From: a virus
Strand: one strand, 5' to 3'
IMG/VR virus record: IMGVR_UViG_3300008050_007409
DNA: 64,000 bases
Positions 958 through 47,996 of this stretch are shown piece after piece. The notes beneath the pieces are model-generated. The model ran no database searches, was not told the DNA's origin, and was given only the letters and a program-made list of their open reading frames with translations. The position numbers and the translations under genes were made by a program. Within the stretch, counting starts at the first letter, position 1; every line of letters begins with the position of its first letter.

Positions 958-1470
958 ATGAAGTGCAAGATCTTCCACGGGAATCCGGGGAACGTCGAGT
1001 CCAAGATCAACGAGTGGCTGAAGGAGAGCAGCTGCACCATCTCGCACCGGGAGATGGTGCAGCTGCTCTCCGAGGTGGTGATAGAGCGCCCCGGCGGACT
1101 CCGTGAAGGGGCTGGTCTCGATCTCACGGGGGGTTCAGACCAAGGCCAGGATGCGCGGCGGGTGTTGGTGCCCGTCGTGGCCGTGACCGTCTGGTACGAG
1201 GAGCTCCCTCCCACACAGGTGGAGGCTCAGCATCGTAGGGAGCAGGGCGACCTGATCAAGAAGGCCCTGGGAGTCCGCGTCGACGAGTTCGACCTGTCGG
1301 TGCGCTCGGCCAGCTGCCTGCAGAACGCTGGCATCGAGTACATCTGGCAGCTCGTCGAGAAGACCGAGGCCGAGATGTATAGGACCAAGAAATTCGGCCG
1401 CAAGTCGATCAACGAGCTCAAGGAGCATCTCAAGGAGTACGGCCTCTCCCTGGGCATGTCCCGTCCGTGA
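958..1470 (+). CDS. RNA polymerase alpha C-terminal-domain (alpha-CTD) protein fused to a small N-terminal domain
   Basis: C-terminus [58 protein letters not shown] matches the RpoA CTD; no alpha-NTD; AGGAGG RBS. Confidence 0.9.
1062..1153. repeat. 92-nt inverted repeat, copy A (partner 30796-30887)
   Basis: Reverse complement of 30796-30887: 60/63 identical, then a 13-nt unmatched block, then 16/16 identical. Confidence 0.95.
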
Positions 1471-3220: not shown

Positions 3221-3336
3221 GGCGTGTCGCTCCTAAGTGCTTGAGGAGGGGACCATAACACGTCTGGCGGGATAGACCCGACGTTCGGTTCTGTTCTACG
3301 TTATGCGGATTGTCACTTCTGTAGTTGACAAACAGA

Positions 3337-3412: not shown

Positions 3413-3782
3413 ATGATCACCATCGAGGACGTCACGGACATCAAGCCCGACGACGTCAGCATCGAGTCCACCTTCACCGCGACCCACCGGGTCAACGTGA
3501 GCGGGCGGCTCATCCGCTCCAACGCCAGCAACGGGAACGACCCGTTGCTGGGGTGACCAGCCCGTCTGCGTCATCCGCGTCCGGGGCATCAAGTTCCAGG
3601 GCGAGGTGCAGCTGGTCCACGGCGGGGAGCCCTTGACCGGCGACGGTCGTGAGGCTCCCACCGCCGTCTGGATCGAGACGGACAAGGAGCCCCTGGTCCA
3701 GCACGTCGAGCGCGACGGTCCCTGGGTGTTGCTCAGCACCCTGCCCGAGGTCTGCTGGCGTCGCGAAGAGCTGGGCTGCTGA
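3413..3782 (+). pseudogene. frameshifted phage protein (..VNV..IRSNA.NG.DP / ..AVWIET type)
   Basis: N-terminal half stops at DPLLG*; C-terminal half (VRGIKFQGEVQLVHGGEPL...AVWIETD) lies in another frame; together they resemble a common small phage protein. Confidence 0.55.
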
Positions 3783-30164: not shown

Positions 30165-30241
30165 GGAGCGAATCTACTCCTGTGAGAGATCGAACGTCAA
30201 CCTCACCTCATCCGGAACCGACGATCGGTTATGGTGCGCCG

Positions 30242-30934
30242 ATGGAAGGCTTCTACGACAAGGCGAAGACAGGACGTATCCTGGGGGTGTCCACGCGTCA
30301 GGTGGACAAGTACATCAAAGCCAGGAAGCTCCGCCGCGTCAAGGAACACGGGAAGGTTTGGATCCCCCGAGAAGACGTGGAGATCCTCTACCGAGATCGG
30401 TCCCTGGTACGGGTCCCCACCATGCAAGAGGTGGTGAACCTACAGCTCCGCATGGATCAGATGGAGAAGAAGGTCAAGATCCTCCAGCGAGGTCTGGGCT
30501 TCGGTGCCAGTGGAGAGGTGCGCGGCGACGCTGAGCTGCGTCTGCTCTACCAGGCGACCCTGGATGACCTCGGCGAACCCGGCTGGCCGGTCACCCGAGT
30601 GATGGAGTACACCGAGGAGCTGTTCAGTTTCAGGGAGGAGGAGCTCGAGTCCATGCTCAGGCTCCGAGGACCGGCCGCCATGCTCCCCTTCTTCGACCTG
30701 GCACGCCGGATGGTGTCCTACCTCGAGGGTCACGACCAGTACCCGAGCGCCGGGATGCAGGCGATTCGAGACAGACTGCTGCGTGCACGGAAGATCATCC
30801 TGGCCTTGGTCGAGATCAACATGAAGATCGAGACCAGCCCCTTCACGGAGTCCGCCAGGGCGCTCTACCAGCACCTCGGAGAGCAGCCGGACTTCATCTC
30901 TGATCAGGTCGGCAGGTACATCGCGGGATTGTAG
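30242..30934 (+). CDS. HTH (excisionase/MerR-type) DNA-binding regulator
   Basis: YDKAKTGRILGVSTRQVDKYIKARKL...GKVWIPREDVE followed by a coiled coil. Confidence 0.8.
   Translation: MEGFYDKAKTGRILGVSTRQVDKYIKARKLRRVKEHGKVWIPREDVEILYRDRSLVRVPTMQEVVNLQLRMDQMEKKVKILQRGLGFGASGEVRGDAELRLLYQATLDDLGEPGWPVTRVMEYTEELFSFREEELESMLRLRGPAAMLPFFDLARRMVSYLEGHDQYPSAGMQAIRDRLLRARKIILALVEINMKIETSPFTESARALYQHLGEQPDFISDQVGRYIAGL
30796..30887. repeat. 92-nt inverted repeat, copy B (partner 1062-1153)
   Basis: See copy A. Confidence 0.95.
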
Positions 30935-30951
30935 GTAGAACCTGCTAAATA

Positions 30952-30982
30952 GTGAAAATCGCAAACGGTTTCCTCCATAAGC
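30952..30982 (+). promoter_or_regulatory. repeated promoter motif (copy 4)
   Basis: GTGAAA 30952-30957, CATAAG 30976-30981. Confidence 0.7.
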
Positions 30983-31785: not shown

Positions 31786-33513
31786 CTACCGGCGTGCGTT
31801 GCGGTGCTTGAACTTCTTGCCGGTGCCGGGGGCGTGGAGGTCCGGACGCTGGTGATCGAACTGGCTGACCAGGAGGGCCAGGACCCCGGTGTGCATGAAG
31901 TCGTCAGGGGTGCCAGGCGGATGGTTGAAGATGATCTCCCGAGCCTTGTCGCTGTACTCGGAGTAGATCGCCAGGATGTCTCGGGCGAAGGTCTCGAACT
32001 GCTCCCAGTTGAAGAAGGCGATGCCTCCCGACTTCGGCCCCCGCTTGATCAAGGAGAAGAAGTCCTGCATGACGCGGGAGCGGTGGCAGATGAACTTGTT
32101 CCCCTGCTTGTCCCACTTCACCTTCTCCTTGAGGCGGCCGACGTACTGGTACTGGATGATCCGCTGGGCGCCCAGCTTCTTCTGCATGATCCGGTTGGTG
32201 TGGAAGCCGAAGCCCCAGTCAGCCCCGATGCGGTTCACACCGAAGACTCGGATCCACATGATCATGTCCTCGACCACGTAGTCAGGGTCGGTCTCTCGGC
32301 CCTCGTAGCGCTTGGCGAAGATGCACCGGAACCTGCCTCGGCTGTCGTAGTTCCAGATCGAGATCACGGAGTAGCTCTGGTCGCCAGTACCCCAGTCGAT
32401 GCCCGCCCAGGAGAAGCTCTGCTTCATGCCCTTGGCAGGGCTGTCGATCATCTCGTAGTCCTGGACGCAGCAGTCCCGGACCTCCTGCAGGGTCACAGGC
32501 TTGAGGCCAGCGTCGTAGCTGCGCCCCATGACCTCGTTCATCCACTTCTGGCGCGGGTACCGCTTGTGCTTGAGCAGCAGCCCCTGCCACATCCGGTTAA
32601 AGATGTCGGGCTGGTGGCGGTAGGAGTAGACCACGATGGGCTGGCAGAGGTGGAAGCCCTCCCACTCCGCGTTCTCAGACCCCAGACGTACCCACTGAGA
32701 CAGGCCGTCGACCGGGTTGATCTCCTTGGAGCACTCCTTGCACTTCAGGCCGGTGGGACCGATGTGGTCCTCGTCGATGACCGCCCACTTCCCGCAGCCG
32801 CACTTGGTCATCCACTCGTTCTGGGTGGAGTGCCTGCTCCAGTAGAACTCGAGGGCGTTGTCGAAGGTCTTCGGCGTGCCAGCGTAGATGGAGAGAGGTC
32901 CGCCGGCGAGCTCCGAACGGAAGAGGACCTCCTCGATGACCGGCAGGATGTCGATGATGATGTCCTGGATCTCGTCGATAGCCAGGAGGTCTGAGGCGAT
33001 ACCGCGGACACGGTCTGCGTTCCGGTAGGCGGCGCGGAGGGCGATCTTCGCCTCGGTGACCCACCGCTTCGTCTGGACGTTCTGCGTCTGTAGGTGTCCC
33101 TTCAGGCCGACGCCGACCATACGCTGCAGGATGGGGGACGTAGCGATCACAGCCCGGAGCCGCTCGTCGCTGAACTCCCGCATCTGCGTGTCGGAGGCGC
33201 TGACGTAGAGGGCCCGGAGGAACGGGATCAGGTTGCAGAGCGCGATGAGCAGGTTGCCCAGGGTCGTGCTCTTCTCCGACTGCCGGCCGAACATCAGCAG
33301 CAGGTTCCGCCGGTAGACCTCCTCCATGTGGTCGGTGAGTTCGTTCAGCCGCTCGATCGGCGTCGCCGGCAGGTCGTAGATCTCGTCGAGCCACGGCCGC
33401 CTGAGGAGCTCGATGGGCTCTCCCTTGTGACGGATGGCGAGCTCGGTGAACTCCAGGGGAGTCAGCTCGAGGTTCCCTTCGTCCTCCTCAGCTATGTTGT
33501 GGGCATGCTGCAC
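31786..33513 (-). CDS. terL: terminase large subunit
   Basis: FGRQSEKST Walker A, RGIASDLLAIDEIQD Walker B, GTPK coupling motif, GIDWG and PDDFMH nuclease motifs. Confidence 0.92.
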   Translation of the reverse strand: MQHAHNIAEEDEGNLELTPLEFTELAIRHKGEPIELLRRPWLDEIYDLPATPIERLNELTDHMEEVYRRNLLLMFGRQSEKSTTLGNLLIALCNLIPFLRALYVSASDTQMREFSDERLRAVIATSPILQRMVGVGLKGHLQTQNVQTKRWVTEAKIALRAAYRNADRVRGIASDLLAIDEIQDIIIDILPVIEEVLFRSELAGGPLSIYAGTPKTFDNALEFYWSRHSTQNEWMTKCGCGKWAVIDEDHIGPTGLKCKECSKEINPVDGLSQWVRLGSENAEWEGFHLCQPIVVYSYRHQPDIFNRMWQGLLLKHKRYPRQKWMNEVMGRSYDAGLKPVTLQEVRDCCVQDYEMIDSPAKGMKQSFSWAGIDWGTGDQSYSVISIWNYDSRGRFRCIFAKRYEGRETDPDYVVEDMIMWIRVFGVNRIGADWGFGFHTNRIMQKKLGAQRIIQYQYVGRLKEKVKWDKQGNKFICHRSRVMQDFFSLIKRGPKSGGIAFFNWEQFETFARDILAIYSEYSDKAREIIFNHPPGTPDDFMHTGVLALLVSQFDHQRPDLHAPGTGKKFKHRNARR

Positions 33514-40246: not shown

Positions 40247-41814
40247 CAGAGGCTCTCACTGACGAATGTTGAGGGCAGAGCCACGGGGCTCGGGATGCCG
40301 CTGGCGCCGACTGAGCTCGCTCCCAGGATGGGAGCACCCGTCACGTAGTCGACGGGGTGGGTGAGGGTGGTGACGACTGCGCCGGCGGCGCCCGCCATGC
40401 CCATGAAGACTGTCCCAAGCTGGTCGATCGAAATCTCCCCAGCCGCTGTGGTGATCTGGATTCCAGTGGCGTTGATCTCCACCTTGGACAACTCGCCGAG
40501 CATGTTCTCCAAGAAGATGGCTCCGGTAGGGGAGATCCGAATCTCTCCGAAGGGGGCCAGCTTCGTGAGCCCCATCGTGATGCGGAGGTCGCTGGTGATT
40601 CCGTGGATGCCGATCTCACCTTGGTTGCAGGTGAGCTGGTAGCCCACATCCTCGCCGGAGAGCCAGTTGGCGTTGGTGATCGTGACCTCCTTCTTCCCGC
40701 TGATGATCTCCTTCGTGTTCCCTCCGACCTTCTCTCGGTAGTCGGCACCGGCGGTGATCTGAGCTGTGCCCGTGGCGACCTCCGCCAGGTCTCCGTTGAC
40801 TGTCCTCTCGACTGCGCCCTTGATCTCTTCAGTGAGCCTGCCCGTGGTCCTGGTGACGGGTCCGCTGATCGTCTCCGTCAGGCTGCCGTTCACCGAAACC
40901 GCCCTGTCCGTACCCACGCTGAGGGAGTCGGACCTGTGCACGACCACGTTCCTGGAGCCGTAGTCGACGGAGCTGATGCCTCGAACCTGCTGGAAGAAGT
41001 CCGCAGCGATGAACTCGATCTTCTTCCCCTCCAGGTTGACGAACTCGCCTCCGCCCTGGATCCTCTGGCAGTTGCCGTCCTTGTCGATCCAGACCTGGTA
41101 GTTGTTGTTGATCAGCAGACGGCCGACGATCTGGCCGTTGCTGCCGTTGATGACCGCCTGGGCGTCCTCGTCAGAGATACGACCCAGCCCCAGGTCGATC
41201 ATGGGGTCCTCGTCGGAGAACTCCTTGACCTGCAGCCGGAACTCGACCGGGTCCTTTCCCGAGCCGTGGGAGTCGTCGCTGGTCCTGGACTTCCACTCGA
41301 GCTTGCCGCCGGCGGCGTTCTGCTCCCAGTTCGAGAAGAACTCCCGGATGGTGTCCTGCAGAGGGAGGTAGATCCTCTGGCTCATCTGCGTGGAGCCGAT
41401 CTCCAAAGAGCCGCCCTTGCGCAGGATGATGAAGGGGTTGGACCCCGGCCCGGAGATCATCTGATCGCCCTGACCGAGCACCGGCCTGTTCATCCGGTGG
41501 TCGTTGGGGTCCTCCTCGTCGTCCGCGTCGTCGAGCTGCCTGGGGAGGCTGGCGCCGGCCATGATGAAGGGGGCCTTCTGGTCGCTGGGGCGGCAGAGCC
41601 AGACGGGCGTGTTGACCTCCGGCATGAAGAAGTTGCCCTGGCCGTCCGCCCCCACGTTCATGGGGTTGATCGGGACGCCCTCGTGGACGCAGTTGTCCGG
41701 CGTCACCACCGTGCACGTGTAGGAGGTGTTGTTCACCTCCTGGATCATCCCCATCGTCACCTTGGACTGGTGCTGGTGGATGTTCGTGGATCCCTGGAAT
41801 CGCCTCTTCCACAT
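40246..41814 (-). CDS. baseplate central spike (gp5/gpV-like)
   Basis: N-terminal OB fold (G.FFMPEVNTPVWL), then beta-helix-type repeats (VGTDRAVSVNGSLTETISG...). Confidence 0.75.
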   Translation of the reverse strand: MWKRRFQGSTNIHQHQSKVTMGMIQEVNNTSYTCTVVTPDNCVHEGVPINPMNVGADGQGNFFMPEVNTPVWLCRPSDQKAPFIMAGASLPRQLDDADDEEDPNDHRMNRPVLGQGDQMISGPGSNPFIILRKGGSLEIGSTQMSQRIYLPLQDTIREFFSNWEQNAAGGKLEWKSRTSDDSHGSGKDPVEFRLQVKEFSDEDPMIDLGLGRISDEDAQAVINGSNGQIVGRLLINNNYQVWIDKDGNCQRIQGGGEFVNLEGKKIEFIAADFFQQVRGISSVDYGSRNVVVHRSDSLSVGTDRAVSVNGSLTETISGPVTRTTGRLTEEIKGAVERTVNGDLAEVATGTAQITAGADYREKVGGNTKEIISGKKEVTITNANWLSGEDVGYQLTCNQGEIGIHGITSDLRITMGLTKLAPFGEIRISPTGAIFLENMLGELSKVEINATGIQITTAAGEISIDQLGTVFMGMAGAAGAVVTTLTHPVDYVTGAPILGASSVGASGIPSPVALPSTFVSESL

Positions 41815-44800
41815 CAGTACTGCCCTGCCCAGTCCTTCCCGAGTACCTCCTCACCCTTGCCGAATTCGGAGGCATGCGCCGCCGCGGGGATCGGATGGTA
41901 GCCGTGGATGTCGCTCTTCCAGCCCTCTCGTACCGCACGCTCCATGGTGTCGTTGAGCTTCTGGAAGTTCAAGCGTGCCATCCAGTCCTCCTGCATGGCC
42001 AGCGGCATCTGCCCGACACCCTTGAGGGTGGGCGTGTATCGCACGTCCTTCTTGGACGGACCGGACACGTCGTTCCAGTGCTTGATCTCACTGATGCGTC
42101 GGAAGTCACCCGGCGACCAGTCCGGGTTGTCCCCAGGGTCGTCGACCTCCGCCAGGTTGGTGATGGCGCGGACGATGACCTCGATGTTGCGGCGCTTCAC
42201 CTTGGCCGCGTTGTTGTGCAGGACGCTCTCGATCTCGTCCGACATCAGGTCCTGCACGTCCTCGACGTCGCGGAGCTCCAGGAGCTTCCGGGGATCGACC
42301 ACGCCATCCGAGAGCGCGTCGCCCTTCCGGACCTCCTGTCCACGGCGCACCATGAGCTCGTGATCACCTCGGACGTAGTGCTTCTTCCCTCCGATCTCCA
42401 CATCCCAGCCGCCCTGGGGAGCTTGCCGGACCGTGGACACCTTCCCGCCCCTCTCAGCCAGCGGGGCCGAGTCCGGGAGGTTCTTGGGCAGCGTCAGGAG
42501 GTTGTTCAGGGTCTGGAAGGTGTTCGCGGAGCGGGCTGACCGGCCCTTGGCGATGCCTCCGGTGTGGAAGGTGTTGAGGCTGAGCTGGACGCTGGGCTCT
42601 CCCACGGCCTGACCGGCGATGACGCCGATGTTGGTGCCGATGTCCGACTCCTTCCCCATCTCGTTGAGGCCCAGGCACTTCTGGCACACCCCGTTCTTGG
42701 CCCGGCACCGGAGGGGAGAGCGGACGGGGAGGTCGGACCTCTTCGACTTGCGGGCAGCGGCGACCACGCTGGGCGTGACCATCGACCCGGCCTTGTGGAC
42801 CTTGCCGTCGAGCTTCACTGAGGTGGAGAGGTAGCGGTCGACCAGGTCCCTGTTGTCCAGGTCCAGCTTGATCCCCGCGGTGGTCCCGCAGTCGCCCTTG
42901 GAGACGACCTGGTCCATCGTGGTGTTGTTGATCCGCTTGGACAGGTAGCCGGGGTCGCGGACGCCCTGCACCTTCTGCACAGCGCCCTTCCGAGCTCCGT
43001 GCATCGTGGTCCAGTAGGAGCCCAGGTCCATGCCCTCCGAGTAGCTCCGGTCGATCATGAACGGGACCACCCGGCTCTTGGCGTCCATCACCAGCGCAGG
43101 GGTGCTGATGATCTGCTTGAGCTGCTCAGGCTTCCCTCGGGATCCGGAGATCACCATCTCGTAGATGTTGGTGGGGTTGTCCCTGAGCGCCAGATCGCTG
43201 AGCCTGTCGATCTCGTCGTCCACCTTCTGCAGGTGAGCGATGGCCTTCGCCTTGCCCTTCTTCTTGTCCTTGGTCGTGGACCGGATCCGGTCGGCCTCGC
43301 GCTGAGCCCCGTCGATCATCTTGTCTCGCTGGGACTTGTTGACCACCTGGAAGTCGTCCAGGCCGATGGAGAAGCCGATCTCGTAGCTGTGGTCGTTGCC
43401 GATGTCCTTGAAGCGGTTGGAGACCTCGGCGTAGAGGTCCGGGTGGTTCTTGGCGATGTCGGCCAGGATGGTCTTGGTCCCACCCTTGTCCATCAGCCGC
43501 ATCTTGCCGACAGGCTTCTTCCCGGTCTCACGCATCTCGGCAGGGAGCACGGCCTCGATCTCCAGACGACCCAGGGTGGTCGGGTCTCCACCCACCTTGA
43601 TCTGGTCTGTGAGCTTGATCTTGCCCTGCATCTTGGCCCGCCGGGCGTCGTGCATGTCCTTGAAGGCGTGGGAGGTCTTCCTGCCCGGCTTGCTCGCCAG
43701 GTACATCCCCAGGAGGGCTTCATGCCCTGGGGTATACATGACGGATCCGTCGGTCGGGTTGAACAGGTTGTTCGAGGGGAACATCTGCGTCGCCTCCCGA
43801 GCCGCCTTGCTGGTGACCGGCAGGTAGACGCTCATGGCGTCGCCGTCGAAGTCGGCGTTGTAGCCGGACGTGACCAGCGGGTGGATCTCCAGGGCGTTGC
43901 CCTTCACGATCCGAGGCTTGAAGGCCATGACGTTGAACTTGTGCAGCGACGGGTCCCGCTTGAGCAGGATCGGCCGGTCCTTCATGACCCGCTCGAGGGT
44001 CTTCTGGGCGGGCACGGACTTCTTGTTGATGGCCTCCCTGGCATCCAGTGGGTTCCAGTTCATCCGGACGAGCTCGCGCTGGACGTAGGGCGCGTAGAGG
44101 CCCCAGGCGATCTTCTCGGGGACGCCCAGCTCGTCGATGCCCTGGTGGGGCTCAGGGATGATGATGGACCGGCCCGAGTAGGCCTGCCGCCTCTTGATCA
44201 GCGTCTTCTGGAAGTAGCCGTTCTTGGACCGCCCCTTGCGGGAGCCGTCCTTGCTCTTGGTCTGCCCGGAGATGATGTCCAGGACACCGCGGTACTCGCG
44301 GGTGAGGCTGGGCCCGTTGCCGTTGAGCGCCGAGAGCGCGTCGTAGACGGCGACCCGGTCCTCGGCCAGGCCGTACGACGGGATCCCAGCCTTCTTGGCG
44401 TCGGTCATGGTCTGGTTGACCGTGCCCAGGTCCTTGTAGAGGTAGTTCAGATCCGTGTTGGAGAGGGAGCCGTCGTCGTTGACCACCGGCGGGCGGAAGA
44501 CGGGGGGCAGGACCGGGACCGCCCGCATCATGTAGATCGAGGGGTCGAGGTTGTTGTCCTCGAGCATCTTGAAGACGCGGAGCCGCTTGTGGACCTTGGA
44601 GCGCGACCCGGCCTTCAGGCGCTTGGCCCGCTCCTCCAGCTCTGCTCGCTCCTTCTTCACGTCGACCTGCTTGAGCATCTCCTCGAAGGCGGCGCCGCCG
44701 ACCTTGCCGTTGACCTTGACCTCCCCGGCCAGGATCTTGCGGTAGCGGGTCTTGTCGATGTCGAGGACCTTCTGGACGGCCTCCTCGAACAGGGGGTTGG

Positions 44801-47800
44801 GGAGGGGCTCCGCGAGCTCGATGTGGCTCCACTTCGTGCCGTTGAGTCCCCCGGTGGTGGCCGGGTCGAAGATCCCTCCCACCTCCGGCTTGATGTCCTT
44901 CCCCATGACGGCGCGGTTGGGCTTCGTGAGCTTGCCCGAGCTCATCTTGCGGACCTGGGCCTCCGTGAAGGGCATCAGGGAGATCTGCGACCCCTCCTTC
45001 ACGGGGTTCACCCGCATGGAGCGGAGGTAGTTCTCGAACTTGTCGTAGGCGAAGGGGACCTTGGCCGGAGGGATCCGCTTGTTGTCCCGGATGGCGTCCC
45101 AGAGCGCGTCGTTGCGCGTGCTCTTGTAGGCGTACATCTCGTGGAGGTTGTCGCGGGCGCCGTGGGCCAGCATGGCGTAGAGCCCCAGCTCGCCCAGGGA
45201 CTGACCGCCGTGCGGAGCTCCTCCTGTCGGGGCGTGGTGCACGTCCCACCCAGCTCCGGGGTCTCCGGACCTGACGGCGATCTTCTTGCCCGCCTGGTGC
45301 TTGAGCTTCACGATGTACTGGCGGCCGGTCAGCACGTCCTGATCGAAGGGCTTCCCCGTCTTGGGGTTGATCAAGGACTCCTTGTCCGTGAGCCCCAGGG
45401 CTGCCAGGTCCTTCTTGACCATGGCGAGGTAGTCGGTGTCGCCGTCGAAGTTCCTGACCCGGTAGGTCTCGCCGGTCTTCTCTGCGACCTTGCCGGCCGC
45501 GGTCTCCAGGACCTGACCCAGGTTGATGCGCCCAGGCACGCCCAGAGGGTTCAGGGCGATCTCGACGTGCTTGTTCTCGCCGTCCTCGTCCATGAACGGC
45601 ATCTCCGCATCCGGGACGATGCGGGTGATCACGCCCTTGTTTCCGTGTCGGCCGACGAGCTTGTCTCCGATCTGCGCAGGCTCCTCGGTCTTCACGTAGA
45701 CCATGATGCTGCCGTCGCTGCGGCGCACCACGTCGCTGACCACTCCGGGGTAGGGCTTGTCCCAGGTCATCGAGCGGTTCCGGAACTTCCTGCTCCGCCC
45801 GCGCCGGAACTCTCGGATGTCCTTGAGCTGCTGGCTGGGCGTCGGCGGCTTGAGCACCAGTACCAGCGGGTCACCCTCGACGACCTTGGAACCGATCTTG
45901 ATCCGTCCATCGTCGTCGATGCTGGCCAGCTGATCCTTGTCGAAGTCGCTGGGGTACTGAGACAAGAACTTCTTCCGCTCGGTGATCGCCAGCTTGTCCA
46001 GGCGTGCCTGGTTCGGGTGCACGTGGAGCGAGGTCAGCTTCTTCGCCGCCGTCTCGCTGATGACGATCCCATCCTCGAAGTTGTAGCCCTGGAACGGGAT
46101 GTAGGCGGCCCGGAGGTTGGTGCCCAGGGCCAGGGTACCGTCCTTGGTGAAGGTGGAGTCGACGAGGAGGTCCCCCTCCGCGACCTTGTCTCCGGCCTTG
46201 ACCTTGACCTCGGAGTCGTAGAGCGAGCCGCCCGGCAGGGCGAAGTCCCGGTAAAACTGGACCTCGTGCTTCTTCCCCTTGCGGTCCTTGATGATCACCG
46301 CGTCCTTCCGGACCTGGTCGACGGTGCCTGCGATCGGTGCCTTCCGCGCCGAGTACTCTCCGAAGATCTCCTCGAACGACTGGTCGCCGTCTGTCTGCAC
46401 CTGGACCAGGGGAGCCTCCCGCTCCTTCAGAGGCACGGCCTGCTCCGCCTGCTTGGCGGCAGTCATGGCCCGGTTGCCCTGGTTGTTCTGCAGGAAGGGC
46501 ACCAGGTTCGAGCTCACCCCGAACACAGCCCGCGGGCTGGGGAGGATGTAGTCGACCTCCTTGGGGCTCACGTAGGTGATCTCCCCATCCCGGAGTGCCT
46601 TGACCCGCTTCCCACGAGCCTTGCGCCCCTTGTACTGGTCCGGGAAGGAGATCACCTTTCCAGCGGTGTCCGCCGGCGACAGCTTCTCGGTCCTGCCGGT
46701 CCTGGCGTTCTTGAAGCGGGAGACGACGGTGTCGCCCTTCTTCTCCGTGCCGAGGGCCAGGGACAGGGTGATGCCCGTCTTGTCGCCCTCCGGCGTCCTC
46801 ACGGGGTCCAGGAAGCCGAACTGGCTGGCGTTCAGGAGCTTGGCCTCGTCCAGGACGGCGAAGGGGTTGGCGATGCCTCCCTGCTCTCCTAGGATGGTCG
46901 TGGCGGTCTGCCCGGCCAGCATCCCGAGCGGGTTGGTCTGGTCCGGCTCGTTGGCGAGGCTCTGGCTGAAGAACTTCTTGATCGACGGCGTGACGGTCCC
47001 GGAGGGGACCACCTTCTTCAGATTGCGCCGCTTGTCGATGTTCCACCGGATCTTCCGCTGGATGGTCGAGGCGTCCCTCCGGATGCGTCCTGAGATCAGG
47101 TCCTCAGCCGCGTTGACCGACTGGAATTCCATCGAGGACTTGTTGTCCGGCTCGCGGTCGCCGCGGGAGATGGACAGGAGCTGCTTCGAGGATTCGATCA
47201 GCGTGTCACCGTCCACGCTCTTGAAGCCCTTGCCCAGGGTCCGCTTGGTGGTCTGCTGGTCGACTTCCGTGCGGGCCAGGTGCTCGGCGAACAGGCCGGC
47301 GTGCTCGGCGGGGTTCTCCGGCAGAGATCCGTGCACGGCCTTGTAGAACTTGCCGTAGACCCGCTCGGGCTTGGAGTAGCGCTTGTTGCGCTCGAGCAGC
47401 TTCTTCCCCCAGGCGCGCTCCAGGGCATCGTCGGAGACGCCCGCCGACTTGAGCAGGGGGTAGGCCGCCATCTTCGAGGTGCCGACGTGCACCAGGAACA
47501 GCGCTCGCTTCGGATCAAACTCCATCTTGAAGGAGCGGCCGCGCCTCCCCTCCTGTCCGGTGAGGGCCTCGTGGTTCCCGAGGTTGAACTCCGCGTAGAG
47601 CTTGTCGTCTCGGCTCCTCCGGTGGTAGACGCCGGGCCGGAGACGGAGCTGGTTGAAGATCTGGTACTCGCTGCCCTTGTGGATGTAGCCGAATCGGTCT
47701 GTAGTCCGGGGGAGGTGCCCGACGATCACCTTCTTCCTGTCGATCTCCTTCATGTCGCCGTCACGGCCCTTCCGCATCAGGGACATGTCCGCGTAGATCG

Positions 47801-47996
47801 GCACCTGCCAGGACTTCCCGCTTCGGATGGCCTTCTGCTGGTCCCGCAGGTCGGAGGCACTCTTGGTGTCCCTCACCTCGACGGAGTGGACCACCAGCTT
47901 GGAGTTCTTGGTCTCAACCTGGAGCGCCTCCTCGACAGCCTCCGAGACCTTCGCGGAGAGCGCCTCGAACTGCTGATCCGGATTGAGGTGGGGCAT
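41814..47996 (-). CDS. single-polypeptide multisubunit-type RNA polymerase (beta-beta' fusion)
   Basis: beta motifs DQTNPL, TPEG, YNFEDGI, GDKLVGRHGNKG, GGQSLGE, then beta' motifs PVLPP.FRP, YSGRSII, RDPSLH, YNADFDGD, HGARKG, GEPSVQL.LNTFHTGG. Confidence 0.97.
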   Translation of the reverse strand: MPHLNPDQQFEALSAKVSEAVEEALQVETKNSKLVVHSVEVRDTKSASDLRDQQKAIRSGKSWQVPIYADMSLMRKGRDGDMKEIDRKKVIVGHLPRTTDRFGYIHKGSEYQIFNQLRLRPGVYHRRSRDDKLYAEFNLGNHEALTGQEGRRGRSFKMEFDPKRALFLVHVGTSKMAAYPLLKSAGVSDDALERAWGKKLLERNKRYSKPERVYGKFYKAVHGSLPENPAEHAGLFAEHLARTEVDQQTTKRTLGKGFKSVDGDTLIESSKQLLSISRGDREPDNKSSMEFQSVNAAEDLISGRIRRDASTIQRKIRWNIDKRRNLKKVVPSGTVTPSIKKFFSQSLANEPDQTNPLGMLAGQTATTILGEQGGIANPFAVLDEAKLLNASQFGFLDPVRTPEGDKTGITLSLALGTEKKGDTVVSRFKNARTGRTEKLSPADTAGKVISFPDQYKGRKARGKRVKALRDGEITYVSPKEVDYILPSPRAVFGVSSNLVPFLQNNQGNRAMTAAKQAEQAVPLKEREAPLVQVQTDGDQSFEEIFGEYSARKAPIAGTVDQVRKDAVIIKDRKGKKHEVQFYRDFALPGGSLYDSEVKVKAGDKVAEGDLLVDSTFTKDGTLALGTNLRAAYIPFQGYNFEDGIVISETAAKKLTSLHVHPNQARLDKLAITERKKFLSQYPSDFDKDQLASIDDDGRIKIGSKVVEGDPLVLVLKPPTPSQQLKDIREFRRGRSRKFRNRSMTWDKPYPGVVSDVVRRSDGSIMVYVKTEEPAQIGDKLVGRHGNKGVITRIVPDAEMPFMDEDGENKHVEIALNPLGVPGRINLGQVLETAAGKVAEKTGETYRVRNFDGDTDYLAMVKKDLAALGLTDKESLINPKTGKPFDQDVLTGRQYIVKLKHQAGKKIAVRSGDPGAGWDVHHAPTGGAPHGGQSLGELGLYAMLAHGARDNLHEMYAYKSTRNDALWDAIRDNKRIPPAKVPFAYDKFENYLRSMRVNPVKEGSQISLMPFTEAQVRKMSSGKLTKPNRAVMGKDIKPEVGGIFDPATTGGLNGTKWSHIELAEPLPNPLFEEAVQKVLDIDKTRYRKILAGEVKVNGKVGGAAFEEMLKQVDVKKERAELEERAKRLKAGSRSKVHKRLRVFKMLEDNNLDPSIYMMRAVPVLPPVFRPPVVNDDGSLSNTDLNYLYKDLGTVNQTMTDAKKAGIPSYGLAEDRVAVYDALSALNGNGPSLTREYRGVLDIISGQTKSKDGSRKGRSKNGYFQKTLIKRRQAYSGRSIIIPEPHQGIDELGVPEKIAWGLYAPYVQRELVRMNWNPLDAREAINKKSVPAQKTLERVMKDRPILLKRDPSLHKFNVMAFKPRIVKGNALEIHPLVTSGYNADFDGDAMSVYLPVTSKAAREATQMFPSNNLFNPTDGSVMYTPGHEALLGMYLASKPGRKTSHAFKDMHDARRAKMQGKIKLTDQIKVGGDPTTLGRLEIEAVLPAEMRETGKKPVGKMRLMDKGGTKTILADIAKNHPDLYAEVSNRFKDIGNDHSYEIGFSIGLDDFQVVNKSQRDKMIDGAQREADRIRSTTKDKKKGKAKAIAHLQKVDDEIDRLSDLALRDNPTNIYEMVISGSRGKPEQLKQIISTPALVMDAKSRVVPFMIDRSYSEGMDLGSYWTTMHGARKGAVQKVQGVRDPGYLSKRINNTTMDQVVSKGDCGTTAGIKLDLDNRDLVDRYLSTSVKLDGKVHKAGSMVTPSVVAAARKSKRSDLPVRSPLRCRAKNGVCQKCLGLNEMGKESDIGTNIGVIAGQAVGEPSVQLSLNTFHTGGIAKGRSARSANTFQTLNNLLTLPKNLPDSAPLAERGGKVSTVRQAPQGGWDVEIGGKKHYVRGDHELMVRRGQEVRKGDALSDGVVDPRKLLELRDVEDVQDLMSDEIESVLHNNAAKVKRRNIEVIVRAITNLAEVDDPGDNPDWSPGDFRRISEIKHWNDVSGPSKKDVRYTPTLKGVGQMPLAMQEDWMARLNFQKLNDTMERAVREGWKSDIHGYHPIPAAAHASEFGKGEEVLGKDWAGQY

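Follow-up and report, generated by a model that had tools for sequence, protein, structure and literature searches.

An antisense copy of a helix-turn-helix gene translated in frame within the alpha-CTD gene of a large marine phage

On the + strand of the window, by which we mean the whole stretch of 64,000 nucleotides analysed here, a gene of 170 aa at 958-1470 combines a beta-alpha-beta-beta N-terminal domain with an RNA polymerase alpha-CTD (residues 99-160; PF03118, E 5e-19). This gene, hereafter the recipient, carries within its N-terminal domain a stretch copied in antisense from a second gene, the donor, which encodes a helix-turn-helix (HTH) protein. The phage is uncultured, large and marine, with a contig of 165 kb; helicase, primase and family A polymerase genes occupy the right end of the window, and the terminase gene lies at 31786-33513. 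No cultured relative exceeds 30% identity, the best being the terminase at 30%. Searches of a viral contig collection by HTH protein, alpha N-terminus, terminase or promoter pattern returned no relatives, the genome contig collection matched none, and in the metagenome contig collection the alpha N-terminus was without a match. A JGI contig of 146 kb was considered as a relative and rejected, being the same strain. Two further features of the window are a 2060-aa ORF within the virion operon (41814-47996) and a segment at 314-584 with tRNA-like ends, a large structured interior and its own promoter motif upstream, for which there was neither an ARAGORN call nor an Rfam match.

The N-terminal domain of the recipient is covered by no homologue and gave no Pfam match at E 10, nor did it match the Spore_Cse60 profile (PF10957). 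The domain resembles viral and bacterial small proteins of 62-69 aa (TM 0.58-0.62, to be taken as a lead), and some of the look-alike clusters carry Spore_Cse60 on 21-23% of their members; the likeness to Cse60 is purely structural, with a score under 0.9. The extra length of the domain relative to the small look-alikes is the insert itself. Folding the alpha protein from its sequence alone gave a model of unusable quality (pLDDT 38). An alpha-CTD devoid of an alpha-NTD is likewise found in another large phage, vB_BmeM-Goe8 of Bacillus, in a protein annotated as RNA polymerase subunit alpha (41% over 58 aa). In contrast to the stand-alone alpha-CTD of the Goe8 type, that of the recipient is fused to the small Cse60-like domain that holds the insert.

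The recipient constitutes a cassette of its own between two TCGCCYGTAGA motifs, and shares a promoter-like element with several small genes. At the left boundary (889-930, + strand) the motif is accompanied by this element, a putative phage promoter (GTGAAA ... CCATAAGC) that is repeated before several small genes. At the right boundary (1472-1520, + strand) there are terminator-like hairpins and the motif TCGCCTGTAGA; a scan for T-tailed terminators over that interval found none. Within the window the motif follows hairpins at 263, 889, 1510, 11464 and 31773, and does so in sequence L001 at 810 and 8748. It is often succeeded by GTGAAA-N15-17-CCATAAGC, and the motif and promoter are kept downstream of the HTH gene in relatives. 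These repeats are likely to be the boundaries of small exchangeable gene cassettes together with a promoter for a phage polymerase.

The donor, also on the + strand (30242-30934), encodes a protein of 230 aa with a Xis/MerR-like winged HTH, a coiled coil and a helical C-terminal domain. PF12728 was found below its cut-off (E 0.001), and the Foldseek search with the structural model placed Xis, BldC and MerR at the top, all of them weak matches with none at E<=0.001. We identified 13 homologues at 57-77%, and wherever their contigs reach, the gene sits between the virion operon and the terminase. The segment from which the copy derives (30796-30889, + strand) encodes residues ~185-216, that is, the last two helices, and is conserved in the homologues at the protein level. 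At the DNA level it is matched at 65-71 of 94 positions in close relatives and at 45-71 across relatives, and the longest run held in common is 14-15 nt in the three relatives measured. Upstream of the gene, a conserved divergent control region (30171-30230) comprises a sigma-70-like promoter on the - strand (30200-30171) facing the virion operon and the palindrome AACCGA-N3-TCGGTT (30216-30230). Since this arrangement is kept upstream of the HTH gene in five relatives, the HTH protein probably regulates the virion operon, with the palindrome as a putative operator. The palindrome overlaps a TATGGT box 6 nt ahead of the HTH start (region 30171-30244), and the sequence suggests a leaderless, autoregulated gene. 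Two candidates in this context were rejected. One was a sigma-70-like promoter on the - strand (30956-30928) for a cis-antisense RNA over the donor, whose -35 is the reversed phage promoter motif and whose -10 spacing is not kept in relatives; the other was a second operator-like palindrome at 3276-3290, which has two mismatches and is within chance. In a related phage (L007, 3145-3271) the region upstream of the HTH gene contains a 58-nt tandem duplication (91%) overlapping an imperfect inverted repeat.

The initial annotation had described the interval 1062-1153 as the reverse complement of 30796-30887, and our analysis bears this out at 79 of 92 positions, laid out as claimed: 60/63, a replaced block of 13 nt (1125-1137) and 16/16, with no net indel. 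A sister allele, X3, reveals that the true span of homology is 94 nt (1060-1153 on the + strand against 30889-30796). The window copy retains 80 of these positions, including an exact core of 32 nt (1093-1124), while that of X3 retains all 94. Both ORFs are on the + strand, and the copy is read in frame within the N-terminal domain of the recipient, where it contributes ~31 residues between the last two predicted strands, also as had been claimed. A self-BLAST of the 64-kb window ranks the copy and its donor as the strongest repeat by far (E 1e-25), ahead of the next non-promoter repeat at 1e-5.

The window is metagenome-derived, and a chimeric assembly could in principle create such a pair. 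This explanation has a practically negligible probability: the insert is given by several assemblers, its mismatches to the donor are common to several studies, the identical alpha protein is present on an ENA contig (165 kb) and on a JGI contig, and contigs from other studies (X2, 1076-1581; X5, 1040-1190; and L005) cross the insert unchanged. In addition, among the Logan contigs (k=31) of run SRR5467136 one breaks off at 1095 and another sets in at 30827, at each locus inside the exact 32-nt core, as a de Bruijn graph is expected to do with reads that contain both copies. The copy is thus real. The same data bear on a further proposal of the initial annotation, namely that the inverted repeats flip the intervening 29.6 kb as a recombinational switch. 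An inverted repeat of 94 nt does exist, but a single orientation is found in all assemblies and contigs, no inverted joint was detected in four runs, the product of inversion would lose the alpha-CTD and have an altered HTH C-terminus, and the repeats are diverging; a switch of this kind is therefore very improbable.

The direction of copying follows from conservation and codon use. The region is conserved in the homologues of the HTH gene, and GC3 of the copied stretch is 29/30 in the HTH frame versus 16/30 in the alpha frame, the rest of the alpha gene having 114/126; the HTH gene is therefore the donor. This supports the earlier suggestion that new coding sequence was captured from an antisense strand. 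A copy from another HTH allele was rejected, because the replaced block interrupts the donor frame with a stop codon and relatives do not match beyond the range given above. Opposite the HTH gene (30440-30964, - strand), the antisense frame that the captured piece uses runs for 174 codons without a stop, probably as a by-product of GC-rich codon use. Among the homologues and contigs searched, we found no alpha gene lacking the insert; an empty site that preserves the frame can be reconstructed on the assumption that the right junction shares one base.

A perfect 21-bp hairpin (1023-1071, + strand; z -5.3), longer than any other in the window, overlaps the left end of the copy: its 3' arm extends over the copy's first 12 nt, and its outer 12 bp match the donor. 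The 5' arm begins with a 12-mer equal to the donor sense sequence 30878-30889 (11/12 in the window, 12/12 in L005), the chance expectation of such a shared 12-mer being 0.07 in 2 x 165 kb. Immediately to the right of the insert there is a further hairpin of 10 bp (1154-1179), the same in all alleles, so that the copy is flanked by hairpins on both sides. The stem of the left hairpin varies. X3 contains two G.U pairs and, at 1033/1061, C-G, where L005 has a C-A mismatch and the window U-A, a series indicating that pairing at this position was lost and later regained. Each of the four changes in the stem either preserves base pairing or re-establishes it, as would also be expected under selection on RNA structure.

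Two classes of mutation offer a framework for these features. Template-switch mutations at inverted repeats, as in the Ripley model, produce arm homogenisation and spacer inversion (PMC8604942), and microhomology-mediated templated insertions are those of MMBIR/FoSTeS (PMC3678771). The 21-bp hairpin and the shared 12-mer point to a fold-back combined with microhomology-dependent template switching. With this class the locus shares an inverted copy from a distant site in the same replicon, with a known direction of copying, as well as a fold-back hairpin and a 12-nt microhomology at one junction, the left. Later arm repair, a multi-base change in a hairpin loop and a spacer inversion elsewhere in the genome are further points of likeness. 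It differs in that the donor is 29.6 kb away in a phage, in that the insert is translated in frame from the antisense strand of the donor, and in that the allele series suggests an erosion dependent on the presence of the donor in the same genome. We found no paper on in-frame antisense self-capture in phages. The spacer inversion mentioned concerns an 11-bp hairpin at 3525-3551, with a 5-nt spacer (3536-3540) that has opposite orientations in the window and in three other assemblies (L001, L002 and L015), with a change of two residues of a 47-aa ORF. Such an inversion within a hairpin is a known mark of template switching (PMC8604942), of which this one may be a product; an assembler effect there is also possible.

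The explanation to which we give somewhat better than even chances is a recent templated insertion by polymerase template switching, now undergoing erosion where copy and target share a genome. Synthesis in the alpha gene would have folded back and copied ~21 nt of itself, thereby generating the hairpin. The new 3' end, matching the HTH gene over 12 nt, would then have annealed to it, copied ~82 nt more backwards and returned. In an alternative order, the insertion may have come first and the extension of the hairpin arm later. In either order, the insert preserved the reading frame and came to lie in a tolerant loop, so that the recipient gene survived.

The later history of the copy is documented by its alleles. 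X3, a single contig rebuilt from a difference table, comes from a hydrothermal vent metagenome run (depth 20) and covers 889-1512; its copy is identical to the donor of the window over 94/94 nt. It is not a graph chimera, as the mere 16 nt shared at each junction fall short of k. The contig departs from the window just upstream of 889, where a different sequence lies beyond the left boundary motif, and it stops at the right-hand motif, at 1512; the cassette therefore sits in another context. Moreover, X3 spans all 94 nt unbroken, and no donor-derived contig was seen from the same run. Judged by the k=31 calibration described above, this suggests a phage that apparently has no identical HTH gene. 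The contigs X2 and X5 likewise cross the 32-nt core unbroken, at depth 2-6, so that an unbroken contig is no proof of donor absence. Stretches uncovered in the runs were not used as evidence, the unbroken X3 contig, argued from this calibration, being the exception. Under the templated insertion favoured here, the promoter-gene-terminator cassette would have moved between related phages at the boundary motifs while the copy was still perfect; X3 points to such a transfer, the direction of which is our inference.

Compared with X3, the window shows 10 change events, eight of them within 1023-1153 (P 1e-4), and five fall in the 94-nt copy versus none in 382 nt of other coding sequence (Fisher p 0.0015). 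The five consist of four point changes (at C, G, T and G) and the 13-nt block, which involves a -1/+1 shift. All but one alter the protein (R to Q, L to V, V to I and HVDL to TGGS), towards strand-forming or flexible residues. The eroded copy is also present on the L005 contig. With the replaced block (1125-1137, + strand; HVDL to TGGS), the loop that could pair with the loop of the donor mRNA is gone, and a firmer hairpin with three G.U pairs is formed (-14.3 vs -11.6 kcal/mol), a value matched by 4.6% of random blocks and 8% of shuffles. A search of 73 kb found no template for the block. The donor underwent no compensating change and stayed as it was while the copy went from 94/94 to 80/94.

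The alleles differ accordingly in the duplex predicted with the donor mRNA, which amounts to -105 kcal/mol for the window and -145 for X3, random 94-mers giving -11; with the HTH mRNAs of relatives, the perfect copy is predicted to reach -53 to -62 kcal/mol. In the perfect allele, a loop bearing a YUNR-type motif is open and complementary to a loop that is likewise open in the target. Through the changes in the window the two best pairing seeds are lost, among them an 8-nt loop that is the sole one open on both RNAs. As a sign of targeted escape, this weakening of seeds is not significant (31-42% of random mutants achieve the same), nor is the longest perfect run shortened more than by chance (P 0.58). 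No Rfam match was found in the window.

In the donor-carrying lineage, the copy acquired the four point changes and the block at a pace well above that of the remaining gene. In terms of the templated insertion, the likeliest reason is the cost of a long perfect match alongside the donor. The cost might arise in either of two ways. RNase III cuts long RNA duplexes, and the two mRNAs could pair and be cut, a form of self-silencing; or the repeats could recombine and break both genes, with the alpha-CTD deleted and the HTH C-terminus replaced. On this reading, no evolved regulatory switch is at work in the genome of the window, yet the copy is probably not inert. Against a targeted erosion, the effects on seeds and run length are no stronger than random and the duplex stays strong. 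The fast erosion could also have come about under neutral capture, in which pairing is not selected at all, though we regard this as unlikely. Here an older copy would have decayed by drift and by hairpin-driven multi-base mutation while the ancestor of X3 was refreshed by gene conversion, or else the changes would have been selected only for a better protein loop. Mutations concentrate at hairpins, and changes of several bases at once can look like positive selection (PMC8604942); the predominance of protein-altering events, with the residues they favour, and the non-significant tests on pairing agree with this scenario. However, the refresh demands an extra event before the cassette transfer, and X3, with the same hairpins and protein context, shows no change in 94 nt.

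The initial annotation also considered a trans-acting control between the two mRNAs. As an evolved function in this genome, the idea finds no support: complementarity was lost fast in the lineage that has the target, despite the strong predicted duplex, and with an unchanged donor it is neither conserved nor co-varying. A specific version would have the alpha transcript, or a piece cut by RNase III at the 21-bp stem, pair with the HTH mRNA and lower the regulator early in infection, the mismatches tuning the strength. We judge it quite unlikely. It would account for a predicted binding far above that of random 94-mers, for the 32 nt that are still perfect, for a stem kept across alleles by two G.U pairs and one compensatory pair, and for a target gene at the conserved control point of the virion operon. 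Yet complementarity falls instead of being kept in the very genome that holds the target, the two best seeds are those lost, the target is in the middle of the coding sequence and not in the start region, arm repair by template switching accounts for the compensatory pair, and the combination of copy and donor is seen in no relative.

Among known antisense systems, lambda OOP, P22 Sar, P1/P4 C4 and CopA/CopT are separate non-coding RNAs, conserved, and mostly encoded opposite their target or aimed at its start region. The copy resembles them in its extended complementarity to a regulator mRNA with a stable predicted duplex, in the YUNR-type loop-loop seed of the perfect allele and as a possible RNase III substrate; it differs by lying inside the coding sequence of another gene, by facing the 3' coding part of its target and by losing complementarity. 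Diversity-generating retroelements, in which a reverse transcriptase and adenine-specific mismatches link a template repeat to a variable repeat, were considered as well. Like these, the locus has a repeat pair of ~100 nt of which one copy, inside a coding region, is changed. Such an element was rejected, given that the copy is antisense, that the template is an ordinary conserved gene and that neither the point changes nor the shifted block are adenine-specific. No reverse transcriptase was found among ~20 proteins scanned plus the listed genes of the genome.

The antisense could alternatively act between phages. The cassette with the perfect copy would silence the HTH gene of a co-infecting relative, and the phage of the window, having kept or received the cassette for its alpha-CTD, would have had to blunt the antisense. 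This is quite unlikely, although X3 does combine a perfect copy with another flank and apparently no identical donor, the cassette is bounded by repeated motifs, the YUNR-type loop of the perfect copy faces an open loop in the target, and binding to the HTH mRNAs of relatives is also predicted. On the other hand, the carrier is represented by one contig, a recent accident followed by hitchhiking gives the same picture, and the HTH genes of relatives would be partly hit too, including the carrier's own. In its broadest form, which we hold to be equally unlikely, a mobile cassette would hide within its coding sequence an antisense element which, released or presented by the 21-bp stem, acts to silence the regulator of the virion operon in a related competitor phage; carriers of the target would have to mutate the element, and such captures may recur in the phage family as a route to new antisense regulators.

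Returning to the templated insertion as the preferred reading, the three alleles offer a rare snapshot of how a replication accident may give rise both to new coding sequence from an antisense strand and to an mRNA able to pair with one of the phage's own genes. A copy that is perfect where its target seems absent and eroded where the target is present would provide a simple test of whether accidental self-antisense costs phages. If the perfect allele does suppress a related phage, a protein-coding gene would carry within it a new form of competition between phages.
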